Positions 3,389 to 10,472 of a stretch of DNA of 32,000 nt are shown piece by piece (the stretch's first letter is position 1; each line of letters starts with the position of its first letter). The position numbers and the translations under genes are program-made. The stretch lies in the NCBI RefSeq assembly GCF_963967315.1, contig NZ_OZ017288.1:210001-242000 (forward strand), written 5' to 3'. Source of the DNA: Candidatus Minimicrobia sp. QA0096 (lineage in GTDB: Bacteria > Patescibacteriota > Saccharimonadia > Saccharimonadales > Saccharimonadaceae). Under the pieces are notes generated by a model. It was not told where the DNA came from. It saw nothing but the letters and a program-made list of their open reading frames with translations, and searched no databases.

Positions 3389-3404
3389 TCTGAATTTACA
3401 ACAT

Positions 3405-3435
3405 TAAAAATCACCCTGAGCATGGGTGATTTTCT
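3405..3435. terminator. Bidirectional terminator between cassette B and tRNA-Leu(CAG)
   Basis: AAAAATCACCC-tgagcat-GGGTGATTTT, with A/T runs on both sides. A near-identical copy lies at 10420-10450. Confidence 0.7.
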
Positions 3436-3458
3436 TATGATGAAAAAATGTCAAATAT

Positions 3459-3545
3459 TGGTGCGGATGAAAGGACTTGAACCTTCACGTACTTGCGTAC
3501 ACTAGCACCTGAAGCTAGCGCGTCTACCAATTCCGCCACATCCGC
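3459..3545 (-). tRNA. tRNA-Leu (anticodon CAG), class II with long variable arm, encoded CCA
   Basis: Manual cloverleaf: acceptor GCGGATG/CATCCGC, anticodon stem CTAGC/GCTAG, loop TTCAGGT, T-loop TTCAAGT; 87 nt. Confidence 0.9.
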
Positions 3546-3587
3546 ATGTGGGCTACGCGTCAATTATAGCCCAATTCCCACCCAGTA

Positions 3588-5198
3588 TCAAGCTTGATTA
3601 CGAAGCTTACACCATGCGTTTAATTCCGCCGCCAGTTCCTTTGGTTGAGCCTCCGCTTTGATTCCTGGGTTAAAAATTCCAGCTGGATCAAAGATTTGCT
3701 TCACCTTTGCATATAATTGCTTTTCATCATCTGGCAGATTTTTATAGATAAAGTTAGCCTTCAATCTTCCGTCACCACCAAAGCCCGCAAAAGAACCTTC
3801 GTACTTATTAACAATCTGAGAAATTTCCACCAACAACTGAAGAACCTTCTGGCGTTCACTCACCTTTTTACTATCAAACGTCGGATGCAGAGAAATATAA
3901 TCGCTTGAAAAGTCAACGAAAACTGGCAAATCTACGCCATACTTAGATTCCAGTGACTTCAACTCGCTAAGGAAACTGTCAATCTTTTCTGGCGCCATTA
4001 AAATCCCAGAGAAAACGCGTGGCGTAATCATATGCGGCTCGCTTGGAGTTTCCGCCAAAGCCAAAACAGAATGCAAGCTGAACAAATCCTGCTCTTCCAA
4101 ATGTAGAGTTTTTATGTCAACCGCTTCTGATGATTCCAATTTTCTAGTCAATTTCTTCGCGGCTTTATTGCGCGCTCTGTCAGAAAAGTCGTCAAAGATA
4201 GCCAAGACCACCGCACCCTTAAAGCATTCTTTCGGCGCCCACTCAACCACTTTACCGACGACCGCAGCCTGACGGAAGAATCGCCCATCAATCAGTTCAA
4301 CGGAAGAAGCTTTGCTTTTCATCGCCAATTCCACGGCTGATTGCGCGTCTGACAACTTTTTATATGATGCGGCAACAACTGAATATTCTGGACGAATAAA
4401 TTGCGCCTTCATAATAACTTCGCAAATCACACCCAGACTTCCCTGACTACCAATAAACAGCGGCGTCAAATCGAACGACCCGTCTTTTTGCTTCACCCGA
4501 AAAATTCCGCTGTAGCCAACCGTATCTGGCAAAGCTGGATCCATTTGCGAAATCAGCTCGGTGTTATCTGAGATTAAATTGTCAATCTCTCGATAAATCT
4601 CGCCCTCAAACGTCGATAAGCCTTTTTTCTTACTCAATTCGCGTCGAGATATACGCCCAGTCTGAATCACGTCGCCATTACTTAAAACAATTTCAAGTTG
4701 CTGAATAGTGTCAGTAAAACGACCATGCGCGCCAGATAACATTCCAGACGGAGCTGTGTTAATTGCGCCACCAAGCGTACCATCTTCCGCTACGTATGAA
4801 GTTCGTGGCAAACCTAAGCCTTTATGAGTAGACAAAGTTGCGTTGATTGCTGAAAGAGAAATTCCCGCTTGAGCATGAATCAGTTGCTGGCGAGGATCAA
4901 TACCAACCACACGATTCATATACGTTTTTTCATCAATTGCAATGCCTTTATTCGTCGCTGCGCCAGTCTCATCGGTGCCATTACCCCTAACAAATACAGG
5001 TAAAACATGACCTTTCTCTGCCAATTGAGAACAAAATCGCATCACTTTCCTGATGTCGTTCATATTAGCCGCACGAACAATCATTTCTGGTCGGCGCGCC
5101 AAAAGTCCGTTATCAACTTCAACTTGACTCAATGCAAAATCCTGCGACGCAACTTCGCCGCTAAGATGCTCATTCAAATATTTCGCAACTTTATTCAT
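3588..5198 (-). CDS. FAD-binding oxidoreductase (GlcD / D-lactate dehydrogenase-like, FAD_binding_4 family)
   Basis: 536-aa ORF. The N-terminal FAD-binding region (VRGNGTDETGAA, GISLSAIN) and overall length and layout match FAD-linked oxidases. Substrate is unknown. Confidence 0.7.
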   Translation of the reverse strand: MNKVAKYLNEHLSGEVASQDFALSQVEVDNGLLARRPEMIVRAANMNDIRKVMRFCSQLAEKGHVLPVFVRGNGTDETGAATNKGIAIDEKTYMNRVVGIDPRQQLIHAQAGISLSAINATLSTHKGLGLPRTSYVAEDGTLGGAINTAPSGMLSGAHGRFTDTIQQLEIVLSNGDVIQTGRISRRELSKKKGLSTFEGEIYREIDNLISDNTELISQMDPALPDTVGYSGIFRVKQKDGSFDLTPLFIGSQGSLGVICEVIMKAQFIRPEYSVVAASYKKLSDAQSAVELAMKSKASSVELIDGRFFRQAAVVGKVVEWAPKECFKGAVVLAIFDDFSDRARNKAAKKLTRKLESSEAVDIKTLHLEEQDLFSLHSVLALAETPSEPHMITPRVFSGILMAPEKIDSFLSELKSLESKYGVDLPVFVDFSSDYISLHPTFDSKKVSERQKVLQLLVEISQIVNKYEGSFAGFGGDGRLKANFIYKNLPDDEKQLYAKVKQIFDPAGIFNPGIKAEAQPKELAAELNAWCKLRNQA

Positions 5199-5245
5199 TA
5201 ATCCTCCTTAGCATGTTACTTCAATTTTAACATAAGCGCGGACAG

Positions 5246-5274
5246 TTGATAAGTAGAATTTGTTTTGATATAAT
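5246..5274 (+). promoter_or_regulatory. Promoter of tRNA-Leu(UAG)
   Basis: TTGATA (5246-5251), 17-nt spacer, then TGaTATAAT (-10 at 5269-5274). The predicted start lies within about 2 nt of the mature tRNA 5' end at 5283. Confidence 0.6.
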
Positions 5275-5282
5275 CGGGTTAT

Positions 5283-5367
5283 GCGGATGTGGTGGAATTG
5301 GTAGACACGCATGCCTTAGGAGCATGTGCCTCACGGCGTGAAGGTTCAAGTCCTTTCATCCGCACCA
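5283..5367 (+). tRNA. tRNA-Leu (anticodon UAG), encoded CCA
   Basis: Manual cloverleaf: acceptor GCGGATG/CATCCGC, anticodon stem CATGC/GCATG, loop CTTAGGA, long variable arm; 85 nt. Confidence 0.9.
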
Positions 5368-5435
5368 TTTTAGAGTAAAAAACCCAATTGTCGCCCGAAT
5401 GGGCGATTTTTTTGAATTTTTACTCTAAAATGGTG
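5363..5435. repeat. 19-bp perfect inverted repeat that starts inside the tRNA-Leu 3' end and encloses a terminator
   Basis: CACCATTTTAGAGTAAAAA (5363-5381) pairs with TTTTTACTCTAAAATGGTG (5417-5435). The inner hairpin TCGCCC-gaat-GGGCGA plus a T7 run lies at 5391-5413. Confidence 0.8.
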
Positions 5436-5526
5436 AGATTTTACGCCCACGCTAGAACTTAGTTTAATACAAAGTCGCAAATCTGAGTAATCAGATTTGC
5501 TGGGTTTATTATATAATTTAAGTAGT

Positions 5527-6768
5527 ATGCATTATGGTCGATCAAAGAACTATCTATTTTACGCAATCGGATGGCACGAATGGTCAGAGAGTATTATTGT
5601 CGACGCTCGTCAAAAAGCCAGTAATATTGAAAAGAGTGTTTTTGAAGCAAACAGTCAGGAGCGAATAGTTGATCACATCGTGTCTGGCTATAACTTAGCC
5701 CCGCTGGTGCTGTTGGCGGACAACAAAACTCAGGACATAGTAGAGACCAAGGTAGATGTCACCGGCAACAATATGTATGTACAAGCATTTGACAATAGTC
5801 CAATCAGCGTGCCCGGCTATAAGGTCGTTATTACGATACCGTTCACTGGTTCCGCAGACCTATTCAAAGTCACTCCTACTAGAATACGAATGACGTATGA
5901 TGATGCCGTGATTACTGGCAACGAATTGACTTTTGCGTTGGAGTTTACTGAATCAAACACCACTGCGGAGCGGATAAAGGATGCATTAGACGGAAAGATA
6001 GCATCAATACAACAAAACATAGATTATATAAACAGCGACTTATCTGGGTTTGAAGAGCGTGTTAAAGGCGTGGTAACCGAAGCAGTCGCCAAACGTTTTG
6101 AGCAGATAAACAAACTCGACTCGATAAAGACTGCGCTGAATATACCACTTGAAAAATCAAACAATCCTAGCCCATTAAGTCAAGTTAGGATTTCAGTGCA
6201 AAAGCTGACTCCACTCTCAACCAAAAAAGATGAACCTGGTGGAACAATATCAAGCAAAGATTACGAAACGATACTTGAAACCATACGAAGCATGGGTGCA
6301 TCTATGGAAACCAACCGAGCGTCAGAATCAAAGGACGAAGAAGCGCTCCGGGATATGTTGCTGGTCGGCTTGTCTGCGAGCATAAAGAGTGGCGCGGTCG
6401 GCGGCGAGCTATTCCACAAGAGCGGCAAAACAGACATCTCAATACCCTTCAACAATAAAGCGACTTTTGTTGCTGAATGTAAGCTATGGAAAGGTCAGAA
6501 ATATATAGACAGAGGCATAGACCAGCTTTTGGGTTATTTGACTTGGCGCGACGCCAAAACCGCACTCGTTATATTCAATAAAGACAACGCTAACTTCTCT
6601 GATATACAAAGTAAAGTCGAACTCATATTTACTGAACGAAGCGACTACGTGCGCACAATCAAGCAGCGCGATGGTGAGTGGCGCTTTGTTATGACCAAAC
6701 CTGACGATAACGGCCGACAAGTTGAAGTTCACGTCATGCTGTTTGATGTATATGAGACAAAGTCATGA
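5527..6768 (+). CDS. Hypothetical protein with a C-terminal PD-(D/E)xK nuclease-like domain (island 1)
   Basis: The tracked ORF starts at TTG 5497; the ATG at 5527 follows a TATAAT at 5512-5517. The C-terminus reads EEALRDMLLVGL...GKTDISIP...FVAECKLWKG...IDQLLGYL, which fits the D...E-x-K pattern of PDDEXK-type nucleases. The N-terminal 280 aa are unrecognised. Confidence 0.6.
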   Translation: MHYGRSKNYLFYAIGWHEWSESIIVDARQKASNIEKSVFEANSQERIVDHIVSGYNLAPLVLLADNKTQDIVETKVDVTGNNMYVQAFDNSPISVPGYKVVITIPFTGSADLFKVTPTRIRMTYDDAVITGNELTFALEFTESNTTAERIKDALDGKIASIQQNIDYINSDLSGFEERVKGVVTEAVAKRFEQINKLDSIKTALNIPLEKSNNPSPLSQVRISVQKLTPLSTKKDEPGGTISSKDYETILETIRSMGASMETNRASESKDEEALRDMLLVGLSASIKSGAVGGELFHKSGKTDISIPFNNKATFVAECKLWKGQKYIDRGIDQLLGYLTWRDAKTALVIFNKDNANFSDIQSKVELIFTERSDYVRTIKQRDGEWRFVMTKPDDNGRQVEVHVMLFDVYETKS

Positions 6769-6789
6769 TGCGCCACGGAGGATGTACAG

Positions 6790-7668
6790 ATGACCAATAA
6801 AATCACGAAGATAACCAGGTATGCCATCCTAGAAGTTCTGGACACTTACATGGCCATCGACTTTTATGGCAGATTAAACGAAGTAGAGTTCTGGGAGCGC
6901 ATATTCAACCTAGAAAAACTACCATCTACCGACAGCCGTTACCCTGACATGAAGAGCGACCTGTGGCAGCACCGCGTGAATAACGATGATTGGGATGACA
7001 ACTGGTACATTGATAAGTTTGACCTGCTGGAAACAGAAGACGCCAAGTTCCTGAAATTCCTGGCCGAGTTCTTCCATCCGGAAGTTAGAGATATAAATTG
7101 GAACACCAAAAGAGTCTTGGCGACCATCAACAAAAACTTGGCACTTGATGGCGTAGAGTTGTATGCCAAGTCAAAAGTATCAGGCCGCGACATACTGGGT
7201 GCTAGAAATATCACGCCCGCCACACAGATAGATGAAACACCGCTCGCAATTATAGACAACGACTTTATATCGCTACAGATCAACAAAAATGTTTACGACC
7301 ACATCAAACAGTACTTAATCAACGAGGACTACTTCCATGCGGTGGACGAAGCATACAAATTGGTACGCAGCAAACTGCAAGAGATAACTGGCAACGAAAA
7401 AGCCACCGAAGTGTTCAGTATGAATGCCGAGAACAGAAAATACTACATGCAACTGTTTGGCAAATCGGACGGCACAACCCATGCCGAAAAAGATTTCTTC
7501 CGCGGTGTCGGTTACCTGAACCTGACCATACAATTTTTACGCAATGAAAAAGCGCACACACCGGCAGCAGCTCTTGAGCGTAACCTGGCTATTCACTACA
7601 TATCGCTTTCTAGTTTGGCCTATGATTTGATTACTCGCAATGAGACAGAACAAGATGACAAGGTCTGA
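6790..7668 (+). CDS. AbiJ-like protein: AbiJ-NTD-like N-terminus plus a C-terminal HEPN / TIGR02391-type domain
   Basis: GGAGGA RBS, 21 nt after the upstream stop. The C-terminus (DHIKQYL..HAVDEAYK...FLRNEKAH) carries the HEPN R-x4-H motif. The N-terminus (ITKITRYAILEVL...FWERIFNLEKLPSTDSRYP...FLKFLAEFFHPEVRD) resembles AbiJ N-terminal domains. Confidence 0.6.
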   Translation: MTNKITKITRYAILEVLDTYMAIDFYGRLNEVEFWERIFNLEKLPSTDSRYPDMKSDLWQHRVNNDDWDDNWYIDKFDLLETEDAKFLKFLAEFFHPEVRDINWNTKRVLATINKNLALDGVELYAKSKVSGRDILGARNITPATQIDETPLAIIDNDFISLQINKNVYDHIKQYLINEDYFHAVDEAYKLVRSKLQEITGNEKATEVFSMNAENRKYYMQLFGKSDGTTHAEKDFFRGVGYLNLTIQFLRNEKAHTPAAALERNLAIHYISLSSLAYDLITRNETEQDDKV

Positions 7669-7676
7669 TAAAACCC

Positions 7677-8131
7677 CGATGAGCCAGTAACGACAGTCAA
7701 AGAAGATAGGCTGATCGCACTGATTTTGCTAAAGGTCTAGCTGAAGTGCTCGTCAAAGTACCAAACTCTGAGTCATTCACGGTCGGGTTATATGGTGCTT
7801 GAGATAGTGGCAAAACATCCGTGGATAAAATAACCGAAGAATGTCTGACTCAAAAAAACATCCAAACGATATCGAGATTATGGACTTCAGTCCGTGGCTA
7901 TTTACTAGCATAGAAAACCTGCACATAATGTCCTTTGGCACACCAGCACAGGAACTCAGTAAGAAATCAGTAGCCGAGCTAACTGGCACAACCGGGGCGC
8001 CACTATTTGCTCGCATAGCATCTGGAGGTCTATCAGCCTTGAGTGGTAATAAGACCGTAAGTGCCGAAGCGCAATGCGCCTCAAAGTATATGATAGATTG
8101 TAAAATTAAATGCGGCACCTCTAGCAAGTAA
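7677..8131 (+). pseudogene. KAP-family P-loop NTPase pseudogene (N-terminal fragment, stop plus frameshifts)
   Basis: One frame reads DFAKGLAEVLVKVPNSESFTVGLYGA*DSGKTS, placing a TGA stop inside the Walker A motif GxxxxGKT. Homology continues in another frame (IEIMDFSPWLFTSIENL). There is no intact start and the region is truncated downstream. Confidence 0.6.
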
Positions 8132-8192
8132 AAAACTCATACTAACTTCGTGTAAAATGTTAATAACAACAAAAACACACACGGAGGTTAAT

Positions 8193-8517
8193 ATGAGTCA
8201 TAGTTATCTTACCCTAAACGATGGAAATAATATAGAGGTAAGGAATTTGCTTGTTATGAAAAAGTAAAAATGAATTAAACGTAGACTTTTATTTCGCAGA
8301 TCCATATAGCGCTTGGCAAAGAGGGACTAGCGAAAAATAGTAATGGCCTACTTAGAGAATTCTTTCCAAAGAAAACTGATTTAGCTAAAATCAAAAATAA
8401 AGAACTAGTAGATGTTATATATAAAAAAACTCCAGACCGAGAAAATGCCTAGAGTTTGATACGCCATTTGAACGTTTCATGCACGAATTAAATTTGTTAG
8501 GAGAGGTGTCGCAATAA
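8193..8517 (+). mobile_element. IS30-family transposase relic (internally deleted and frameshifted)
   Basis: An N-terminal fragment MSHSYLTLNDGNNIE is followed by C-terminal catalytic-domain pieces spread over three frames: FYFADPYSAWQRGTSE / NSNGLLREFFPKKTDLAKI / NSRPRKCLEFDTPFERF. Confidence 0.65.
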
Positions 8518-8576
8518 TTATTGCAATTCAACATAAAATAAAGAGAGTCTTTAGGGATCCGTAACTCTTATATGCT

Positions 8577-8737: not shown

Positions 8738-10030
8738 TTATTTAACAGGAATTTTCTTTGCTAAATCTAATAACAACTCAATCAATTGCGAACTCATAAT
8801 AGGAGCCTCCTCTTTGCTTTTAAATAATCCTTTTGATTTTTTGACTTGATTATTCTCTTCATTATTGAATATTCGGTATGCAACTGTTTTGATAATTTCA
8901 TTTCTTAGTTTTACATCACCTTCAATACTTAGCAGATAAGGCTTTAGTGCTTTAAGTTGATGAGCTGTTCGTTGGTTAGCTCGCTGTGCTTTGCGGTGCT
9001 CGCTTGATTGAGTGGCTGTATATCCTGCTACACCTCCAGCAAATAGCATAACAAATGCTCGAGCTACTAAGGGTTGCCATGACACGGCCTTAGTATTAAT
9101 AACTTCATAAACTACCCAGCAAGAAAATCCTAACATTGCAAGCAGTAAAATTGCTGTTACTACACTCCATATATAAGCAACTATTTTATCTTCCTTAGCA
9201 CTACTAGAATAATCGTGGATTAGTGTTTTATCTCCAGCCATATTCAATAATTCATCTATTCTAGCAAGACTATCTTCTGCCTTCGCCTCAGTAGCGTTTA
9301 GCTTTTTATCTATGTCATCCGTAATGCGATCGGCTTCATTACTCTTTTTGCTAAATGTCTCTTCAATTGTACGTTTCTGCTCTTCAATAAATTTATTAAC
9401 CATCTCATTGCGTACATTTTCAGATTTTGTAAATGATAATTGCTGCTCAGCAGAGATTTTATTTGACGAATCTTTTATGTCTTTTAAATCTTTATTAAGT
9501 TCAGCCACTTTTGCACCAAGTGTTTCAAACTCGTTCTTAGCTTCAGTAACTTTTTCGTCAATGGTCTTTTCTGAGGCGGCTCCTTTAGCGGATATGCTAT
9601 TAATCTCTTTTGCTGCTACACGCTTATATTGACCGACTGACCTATTCAATCCCGCAATAGCTTTGCGAGTTTCTTTTATGTCCATAGCGGGTGTTAATGA
9701 AGGGATGTATGACAATATATTATCGATATATCCATTCATATAAGAAATATCTAGATACGCATCATTACGATAGTTTTGCCAGTTATCAAAGCACGAGCTT
9801 ACACCTGAAAGATAGTTGTTGATATTGTCAAGATTTGATATTGATATTAAGCGGTCGTCTGTATTATTAAGTCTATCTATTAAAAGTTCAATGACTAGTT
9901 TTGCCCGATTAATATCATCGATTGCTTCAAGAGATACATTACCAAGATCTACCTCATCAAATCTGGTTAATAGTTTCTTGGCTGCAGTGTATGTGGCACT
10001 ATTCTGTATACGATCTTCCCATTTACTCAT
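8738..10030 (-). CDS. Coiled-coil protein with two C-proximal transmembrane helices (unknown function)
   Basis: 430-aa ORF in a visibly AT-rich segment. It has its own extended -10 promoter (TGATATAAT on the minus strand, -10 at 10091-10096) and an AAGGA RBS. The N-terminal 270 aa are heptad-like and charged. Hydrophobic segments are IVAYIWSVVTAILLLAMLGFSCWVVY and LVARAFVMLFAGGVAGY. Confidence 0.65.
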   Translation of the reverse strand: MSKWEDRIQNSATYTAAKKLLTRFDEVDLGNVSLEAIDDINRAKLVIELLIDRLNNTDDRLISISNLDNINNYLSGVSSCFDNWQNYRNDAYLDISYMNGYIDNILSYIPSLTPAMDIKETRKAIAGLNRSVGQYKRVAAKEINSISAKGAASEKTIDEKVTEAKNEFETLGAKVAELNKDLKDIKDSSNKISAEQQLSFTKSENVRNEMVNKFIEEQKRTIEETFSKKSNEADRITDDIDKKLNATEAKAEDSLARIDELLNMAGDKTLIHDYSSSAKEDKIVAYIWSVVTAILLLAMLGFSCWVVYEVINTKAVSWQPLVARAFVMLFAGGVAGYTATQSSEHRKAQRANQRTAHQLKALKPYLLSIEGDVKLRNEIIKTVAYRIFNNEENNQVKKSKGLFKSKEEAPIMSSQLIELLLDLAKKIPVK

Positions 10031-10345: not shown

Positions 10346-10398
10346 CTTAGGAGCATGTGCCTCACGGCGTGAAGGTTCAAGTCCTTTCATCCGCACCA
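10346..10398 (+). repeat. 53-bp exact direct repeat of the 3' part of tRNA-Leu(UAG), an attR-like island boundary
   Basis: CTTAGGAGCATGTGCCTCACGGCGTGAAGGTTCAAGTCCTTTCATCCGCACCA is identical to 5315-5367. No tRNA 5' half lies upstream. Confidence 0.85.
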
Positions 10399-10419
10399 AG
10401 AATTGAATTTTTTACCATA

Positions 10420-10450
10420 AGAAAATCACCCATAGTTAGGGTGATTTTTA
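10420..10450. terminator. Bidirectional terminator between the tRNA-Leu fragment and cassette C
   Basis: AAAATCACCC-atagtta-GGGTGATTTT. This is homologous to 3405-3435 in inverted orientation. Confidence 0.7.
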
Positions 10451-10472
10451 ATATCATAAATTCACATTTCAA

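Follow-up and report, generated by a model that had tools for sequence, protein, structure and literature searches.

Do two adjacent genes, one with the look of a DNase and the other with the look of an RNase, form a single two-gene defence system, or are they separate defence genes that travel together? We examined this question in Candidatus Minimicrobia sp. QA0096, in a window of 32,000 nucleotides (nt) that comprises positions 210,001–242,000 of NZ_OZ017288.1 (GCF_963967315.1); coordinates are counted within this window. The genes in question, here called gene 1 and gene 2, lie on the forward strand with a 21-nt gap between them. A preliminary description of this DNA had presented them as a candidate paired defence system, and every coordinate that it gave (for both open reading frames, or ORFs, the gap, the GGAGGA sequence, the protein motifs, a palindrome and a TATAAT box) was correct. 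Our preferred reading, to which we assign a probability of about 0.6, is that these are two autonomous single-protein defence genes placed side by side as a compact mobile cassette, and not a new two-gene system. We favoured two independent genes because the pair travels jointly in one lineage, whereas members of the two families are not partners elsewhere. The genes and their parts are as follows.

5527–6768, forward strand: gene 1, a PDC-S54-family protein of 413 amino acids (aa), matched over its full length by the PADLOC profile PDC-S54; stop codon TGA at 6766–6768
5527–6156, forward strand: N-terminal module of gene 1 (aa 1–210), modelled as an alpha/beta domain plus a long helical hairpin, with pLDDT (predicted local distance difference test) scores mostly of 85–96
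6157–6243, forward strand: linker of gene 1 (aa 211–239), predicted to be disordered (pLDDT <50)
6244–6765, forward strand: predicted C-terminal PD-(D/E)xK nuclease domain of gene 1 (aa 240–413), assigned from invariant motifs, the structural model and hhalign
6406–6408, 6433–6435, 6475–6477, 6481–6483, 6523–6525 and 6535–6537: codons of the candidate catalytic residues E294, D303, E317, K319, Q333 and Y337, respectively
6777–6782, forward strand: GGAGGA ribosome-binding site of gene 2, within the 21-nt intergenic gap and 7 nt before the ATG
6790–7668, forward strand: gene 2, AbiJ_NTD3 plus Ymh-type HEPN (292 aa), assigned with Pfam and TIGR02391; ATG at 6790, TGA at 7666–7668
7540–7557, forward strand: predicted HEPN catalytic motif R251-N-E-K-A-H256 of gene 2, composed of invariant residues

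Domain architecture and family membership

The PADLOC profile PDC-S54 matched gene 1 end to end (E = 6.8e-105), with residues 3–410 of 413 aligned to profile positions 3–408 of 410. With translation from ATG 5527 the alignment begins at residue 3, so that this ATG is most likely the true start codon; the start in the ORF list was TTG 5497. The gene had been regarded as novel, a view that gives way to its placement, at full length, in this catalogued single-gene candidate family. The PDC entries of PADLOC are 145 “phage defence candidates” whose function was not assayed; the families, which can be single- or multi-gene, were defined by members embedded in BREX, DISARM and type I restriction-modification (R-M) systems (Payne et al., bioRxiv 10.1101/2024.01.29.577857).

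Homologues of gene 1 were numerous, with 419 matches in the first search and 350 relatives in species-representative genomes from many phyla. Among 75 distant loci, hsdS adjoined the gene 1 homologue in 14 (directly upstream and on the same strand in 13) and hsdR lay downstream in 10, with hsdM also present in 8; Pfam confirmed these identities. Thus, the R-M “embedding” signal of the PDC families was reproduced independently for PDC-S54. The window copy differs from these relatives in that it lies outside any R-M system, at a tRNA-Leu hot spot and in a putative operon with an AbiJ-like gene.

The nuclease assignment of gene 1 came from its motifs and models. The segments GKTDISIP, FVAECKLWKG and IDQLLGYL, on which the preliminary description had based a nuclease-like core, are all present. 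Across 40 homologues the residues E294, G300-K-T-D303, E317-C-K319, Q333, Y337 and T339-W-R-D342 were invariant, and we take the series E / D / ExK / QxxxY to be the classical pattern of RecB/HsdR-type PD-(D/E)xK nucleases. We used AlphaFold2 to model the full-length protein as well as the C-terminal domain alone. The full-length model showed two well-folded domains with a disordered linker between them, and D303 and E317-C-K319 fell on the model strands 303–308 and 312–320. The C-terminal domain modelled alone reached a pLDDT of 91.6 and a predicted template-modelling score of 0.89. When this domain was aligned by hhalign with the HSDR_N domains of HsdR proteins from the fetched loci, the motifs lined up in a match of 74 columns (P = 9e-4); HsdM and HsdS controls gave P = 0.23 and 0.77, which makes support for the HsdR link moderate.

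Pfam and NCBIfam scans of gene 1 gave no match, and a Pfam scan of the 40 homologues at E ≤ 10 yielded no consistent family, two weak matches to pPIWI_RE_REase being the sole hint of a nuclease. Foldseek of the C-terminal domain against the PDB listed McrC, Cdn1, SfsA, OkrAI and NucS among its best local matches, all with weak E-values and none significant. With the full-length model, the same search returned only acetyl-CoA carboxylase and glyoxalase noise, and the BFVD search returned one HTH_XRE phage protein whose values (E = 9e-5, template-modelling score 0.18–0.27, root-mean-square deviation 18 Å) are uninterpretable. When the PDB was searched with a sequence profile, nothing but spurious matches to MEF2 and keratin came up. 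We concluded that a PD-(D/E)xK nuclease at the C-terminus is well supported by the invariant motifs, the confident domain model and the HsdR profile match, although the fold searches were not decisive. Gene 1 agrees with HsdR N-terminal and RecB-like nucleases in how its motifs (E, D, ExK, QxxxY) and its secondary structures are ordered. Unlike them it has no helicase or translocase, it carries an unrelated, sensor-like module in front, and the similarity lies below Pfam detection.

That module lies in the region of about 280 residues that could not be placed before, and no Pfam or NCBIfam model covers it. A profile of residues 1–210 was searched against 1.84 billion cluster representatives, and 4123 of them matched at E ≤ 1e-3. 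Among the best new representatives, the C-terminus was a nuclease in 67, a TIR domain in 13, a cytidine deaminase in 1 and the thioredoxin-like part of HEC-07 in 1. The TIR proteins matched Pfam TIR_2 and the PADLOC families PDC-S66/ThsB-like. Proteins with swapped effectors include P0244, P0260, P0268, P0281, P0249 and P0291. HEC-07, a validated system, and the PDC-S66/ThsB-type TIR proteins thus have effectors that are found behind a module of the gene 1 type (P0249, P0244 and others); gene 1 instead carries a nuclease, and not a TIR or RelE-type effector. Such an exchange of toxic effectors behind a single N-terminal module is the mark of self-contained immune proteins of the sensor-effector kind. 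We therefore predict that the module is a sensor or a scaffold, and it looks like an undescribed sensor domain common to several defence proteins.

Gene 2 was assigned with strong matches. PF18860 (AbiJ_NTD3) covers aa 4–146 (E = 1.1e-41), PF09509 (Hypoth_Ymh) covers aa 164–277 (E = 3e-12, 47 bits against a cutoff of 25), and TIGR02391 scored 75.1 bits (cutoff 39.45). Residues R251, E253, K254 and H256 did not vary among 24 homologues, some of which have unrelated N-termini; in proteins of this last kind the HEPN domain is still 50–67% identical. The AbiJ-NTD-like start and the TIGR02391-like HEPN domain with RNEKAH, both read earlier from the sequence, were confirmed by these two families and by the invariant Rx4H motif. 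In a PADLOC scan at E ≤ 1 only PDC-M01A and PD-Lambda-3_B matched gene 2, and no family named AbiJ did. Given this result and the assignment of its predicted HEPN domain to Ymh, gene 2 is not AbiJ in the strict sense. The HEPN family of AbiJ differs from the Ymh/TIGR02391 type of gene 2, and AbiJ itself has no known mechanism (PMC13064643).

Proteins that join an AbiJ-NTD to a HEPN domain have been read as a sensor or auto-inhibitory N-terminal domain plus a suicidal RNase, that is, as single-protein abortive-infection (Abi) systems often found in R-M operons (PMC3710099). Gene 2 shares the logic of this architecture, with its predicted sensor and its putative suicidal RNase bearing Rx4H, and its relatives share the link to R-M. 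The Ymh fusions listed by Anantharaman et al. (2013, PMC3710099) comprise AbiJ-NTD1 (plus NTD2 in the text), pMORC and AbiTii, and not NTD3; the NTD3-Ymh combination is common in current databases. Both genes evolve under purifying selection, as shown by ratios of non-synonymous to synonymous divergence (dN/dS) of 0.10 for gene 1 and 0.06 for gene 2 against the diverged pair in locus L085. Relatives of gene 1 and of gene 2 were sought on IMG/VR viral contigs, and none was found for either.

Co-occurrence inside and outside one lineage

We compared the distribution of the two genes among close and distant relatives. In all eight gene 1-anchored loci at ≥93% identity (L001–L003 and L005–L009) the genes were paired, and ORF calling gave the 21-nt gap in each. 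Likewise, 17 of 17 metagenomic gene 2 loci at ≥93% identity that had upstream sequence carried gene 1. L085 holds the pair at 79% (gene 1) and 87% (gene 2) identity in an unrelated site beside yebC and clpB, and the called genes of L085/L086 again showed the 21-nt gap. Synonymous divergence (dS) between the window and L085 was 1.17 for gene 1 and 1.10 for gene 2.

Outside this group the association disappeared. None of 75 gene 1 loci at 30–61% identity, other Saccharimonadales included, had a gene 2-like ORF by tblastn or by a profile hidden Markov model of 120 gene 2 homologues. No gene 1 lay near about 60 proteins that share only the HEPN domain with gene 2. The nearest out-group relatives told the same story: the 76% gene 1 relative in L094 stands solo after an operon of PLD-SNF2 helicase and Eco57I-like methylase, and the 86% gene 2 relative in L095 follows a PLD-SNF2 and Eco57I-like operon and is itself followed by an unrelated 420-aa gene. 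Gene 2 relatives at 81–82% identity occurred in GmrSD-MmeI-DEAD-T5orf172 islands together with this same 420-aa protein and a serine recombinase, some of them at the very same FAD-oxidase/tRNA-Leu or BipA hot spot as in the window, and those at 60–64% lay within type I R-M operons. The paired genes of L085 came out as sisters of unpaired ones in neighbour-joining trees. The pair is conserved only in close Saccharibacteria relatives. A general two-gene system, as in the preliminary description, is not supported: homologues of the two genes do co-occur, but this is confined to one Saccharibacteria clade, with 0 of 75 distant loci showing it, and either gene has relatives at 76–86% identity that lack the other.

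Several candidates for a wider association were considered. Locus L119 (66% and ~62–71% identity) appeared at first to be a deep independent pair, but it contains many frameshifts and groups with the window clade in both trees. The 420-aa protein, which always follows the 81–86% gene 2 relatives with an overlap of 4–8 nt (L090–L099, L115 and L095; for example, L090 6864–8126), had no Pfam match and no similarity to gene 1, and no remnant of its gene was present in the window; it could represent either a different partner or one more stacked gene. Both this protein and the small ORFs upstream of R-M-embedded copies were tested as disguised gene 1 homologues, and neither proved to be so. An ORF of 174 aa at L088 5477–6001 lies just upstream of an R-M-embedded gene 2 homologue and resembles the N-terminal region of the Ymh fusions P0224 and P0233. 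This split-versus-fused pattern suggests another interchangeable N-terminal module. A comparison of L094 with L095 also suggested that accessory defence genes are exchanged at the 3′ position of PLD-SNF2/Eco57I-like operons.

Could the DNase and the HEPN RNase nevertheless depend on each other, with one activating or licensing the other, or with both in a heteromeric complex? Strict adjacency with an identical 21-nt gap wherever it was measured, both at ≥93% identity and in the 79%/87% pair at its other site, speaks for such cooperation. The equal dS of the two genes and the movement of the cassette as a single block with sharp ends fit as well. There is also a precedent in PD-lambda-3, a validated two-gene system of E. 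coli that has been reported to have PD-(D/E)xK and HEPN domains (Vassallo et al. 2022) and has been reported only in Proteobacteria. A named system that pairs a DNase fold with HEPN thus exists, where the preliminary description had recognised none, although the window pair is no detectable member of it. The same two domain classes occur in two genes in both cases, and residues 162–260 of gene 2 match positions 140–237 of 270 in PD-Lambda-3_B weakly and in the HEPN part only (E = 7.6e-5). The N-terminal domain of gene 2 differs, however, and PADLOC at E ≤ 1 gave no match of gene 1 to PD-Lambda-3_A. The families moreover live overwhelmingly apart, in all 75 gene 1 loci and in about 70 HEPN or gene 2 loci, and the closest out-group relatives are unpaired or have another partner. 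Each protein already has its own sensor-like N-terminal domain and effector, and the gene 1 N-terminal domain swaps its effectors within one polypeptide. We therefore regard a cooperative system as rather unlikely. A more specific version, in which the pair of the oral Saccharibacteria would be an interdependent, cross-activating DNase/RNase immune system and the N-terminal module a widely shared, undescribed infection sensor that elsewhere also drives effectors of TIR, deaminase and RelE type, is likewise doubtful.

Four points weigh against two autonomous genes. Their independence is read from their distribution. The persistence of the pair, with an unchanged 21-nt gap over a dS of ~1.1 and through changes of context, would also fit an interdependence born within the lineage. 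PDC-S54 was not mentioned in the literature searched, and no experiment on it is on record. Lastly, the promoter and the co-transcription of the genes, described below, are read from sequence.

A second alternative is an addiction or stabilisation module, in which one product would be a toxin, the other product or an N-terminal domain would neutralise it, and loss would be lethal. HEPN proteins are frequent toxins of toxin-antitoxin systems, and the mobility of the cassette and its place in a recombination hot spot also speak for such a module. We found no MNT or other known antitoxin partner, however, and a nuclease of 413 aa would be atypical as an antitoxin. Both families are enriched in R-M and defence operons, which argues for defence, and both genes occur singly. 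We consider this explanation quite improbable.

On our preferred reading, that of two autonomous genes, we predict the enzymatic activities, triggers and anti-phage function of both proteins as follows. The N-terminal module of gene 1 (~210 aa) would sense an infection cue or mediate assembly, and the flexible linker would tether it to the HsdR-N/RecB-like nuclease, which would cut DNA once triggered. In gene 2, AbiJ_NTD3 is the proposed sensor or auto-inhibitor, and the Ymh-type HEPN domain (Rx4H) would cleave RNA, leading to growth arrest or abortive infection. Together the genes could give layered protection, with the DNase as first line and the RNase as suicidal back-up, neither needing the other. 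The layering of HEPN proteins with R-M systems discussed in PMC3710099 is analogous to such a DNase/RNase cassette.

The mobile cassette at the tRNA-Leu site

The genes lie in a variable part of the chromosome, whose features are as follows.

5283–5367, forward strand: tRNA-Leu(tag), the left anchor of the variable island (ARAGORN; Rfam tRNA, 59 bits)
5390–5415, forward strand: hairpin plus T-run resembling an intrinsic terminator, after the tRNA and inside a 19-nt inverted repeat (5363–5381 / 5417–5435)
5492–7672, forward strand: the two-gene cassette, a conserved, laterally mobile block with 96% identity to L001, L003, L006 and L009
8577–8661, reverse strand: inverted, degenerate tRNA-Leu(tag) copy that brackets the pair-bearing segment on the right (ARAGORN; Rfam, 39 bits)
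10346–10398, forward strand: direct repeat that copies 53 nt from the 3′ part of tRNA-Leu(tag) exactly, an att-like end of the segment of ~5 kb

The tRNA-Leu(tag) and its two copies place the genes in a variable segment of ~5 kb bounded by tRNA-Leu sequences, and the tRNA-linked island of the preliminary description was borne out in this respect. The inverted copy is 94% complementary to 5280–5367. No integrase was found among the genes inside the segment.

We compared the cassette with its flanks. The block 5492–8280 is 96% identical to L006/L009, whereas the neighbouring FAD-oxidase gene (3459–5323) is ~70% identical or undetectable and the SpoU gene (1553–2074) is ~79% identical. The left end of the cassette abuts at least five different sequences. 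Given the 96% block against flanks of ~70%, the at least five left junctions and the second genomic context in L085, we concluded that the gene pair is a laterally mobile cassette. The contrast in identity points to recent lateral transfer among oral Saccharibacteria.

The closest homologues came from metagenome-assembled genomes of Candidatus Saccharibacteria/Saccharimonadales and from Candidatus Nanosynbacter sp. HMT-348, whose genome is complete. Members of the Saccharibacteria (TM7) live as ultra-small episymbionts and have reduced genomes; little work has addressed how they defend themselves against phages. Our results indicate that diverged genomes of this group carry and exchange a cassette in which two predicted defence genes, one for a DNase and one for an RNase, are stacked at a tRNA-Leu hot spot. 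They also draw attention to an N-terminal module that has no Pfam model, occurs in thousands of protein clusters joined to effectors of at least four kinds (PD-(D/E)xK nuclease, TIR, cytidine deaminase and the RNase arm of HEC-07 type) and is a candidate infection sensor. The annotation of PDC-S54 as a nuclease-effector family is supported. These findings extend known patterns and do not overturn current ideas: gene 1 belongs to an already catalogued candidate family, gene 2 to a well-described architectural class, and their pairing is a lineage-restricted stacking.

The genes that flank the island encode HisRS, a SpoU methylase, a FAD-linked oxidase and BipA. The interval from FAD-oxidase/tRNA-Leu to tRNA-Val/BipA is a hypervariable defence hot spot, and in relatives the same hot spot carries GmrSD, MmeI-type, DEAD, T5orf172 and serine-recombinase genes. 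The sequence of tRNA-Leu recurs in both orientations, in copies that are whole, degenerate or partial; such a mosaic is typical of a tRNA site where integration and inversion have occurred repeatedly. The stretch 3391–3447, which matches 10408–10464, is one of the repeated copies of tRNA-Leu and its terminator around the island. The G+C content of the gene pair (43–45%) is similar to that of the surrounding genome. On the reverse strand, in a low-GC stretch (34–36%), 8738–10030 encodes a protein of 430 aa. This protein has a long coiled coil, membrane helices are predicted in it, and NCBIfam matches it weakly to SLATT_1 (E = 0.0016). In L005, L006, L007 and L009 its homologue comes after the pair and shares the strand of the pair, which implies that the segment is inverted in the window.

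Putative promoter, palindrome and 3′ sequence

Two sequence features precede gene 1.

5477–5500, no strand assigned: perfect palindrome with a 10-bp stem, GCAAATCTGA-gtaa-TCAGATTTGC, which straddles the left junction of the cassette
5512–5517, forward strand: TATAAT −10 box, 9 nt before the gene 1 ATG and present in all cassette copies including L085

A consensus scan found no full −35/−10 pair near the start of gene 1, and no Shine-Dalgarno sequence precedes its ATG. Because the −10 box lies 9 nt before the ATG and a Shine-Dalgarno sequence is absent, the gene 1 mRNA is probably leaderless or near-leaderless. Genes 1 and 2 are probably co-transcribed; one promoter just upstream of gene 1 would serve both, with gene 2 using its own Shine-Dalgarno sequence.

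The palindrome had been proposed as an operator. Perfect stems of ≥10 bp with loops of 3–8 nt are rare enough that 0.26 would be expected in the window from Markov-simulated sequence, and 3 were observed; the other two are terminators adjoining tRNA-Leu sequences. Homology to other copies of the cassette begins at 5492, inside the right arm. The full palindrome was present only in the window, in L100 and L103 (near-identical contigs) and, with a flipped loop, in L107; in more than 20 further loci with the same −10 box and gene there was no left arm. The idea of a conserved operator must be abandoned, since the conserved cassette does not include the left arm, which most loci with that box and gene lack. 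The palindrome is a junction feature, possibly a terminator that shields the cassette from the tRNA or else the scar of a recombination event. At L107 89–112 the loop reads TTAC in place of GTAA with both flanks unchanged, a hairpin-loop flip that suggests recombination between the arms.

These junction features bear on a further alternative, in which gene 1 would serve the mobility of the cassette or island, or DNA metabolism, for example as a nuclease of recombination or repair, and gene 2 would be the sole defence gene. Some PD-(D/E)xK enzymes are recombination nucleases, the tRNA-bounded segment is free of an integrase, and the cassette end shows many junctions and the loop-flipped palindrome. 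Yet the distant homologues of gene 1 are single genes in type I R-M operons of many phyla without the cassette ends, the same N-terminal domain is fused to TIR and deaminase effectors that have no recombination role, and gene 1 is catalogued as a defence candidate. We judge a mobility function of gene 1 very improbable, and we retain the reading of two autonomous defence genes.

On the 3′ side of gene 2, about 900 nt (7669–8576) are preserved at the DNA level in relatives (92–96%) with no stable ORF. A third gene or an RNA was considered here and rejected, as no Rfam or Pfam match was obtained and ORFs of 96 aa and 116 aa are frameshifted in relatives. Compared with L001/L003, the window has a 98-nt insertion in this stretch (7673–7770).

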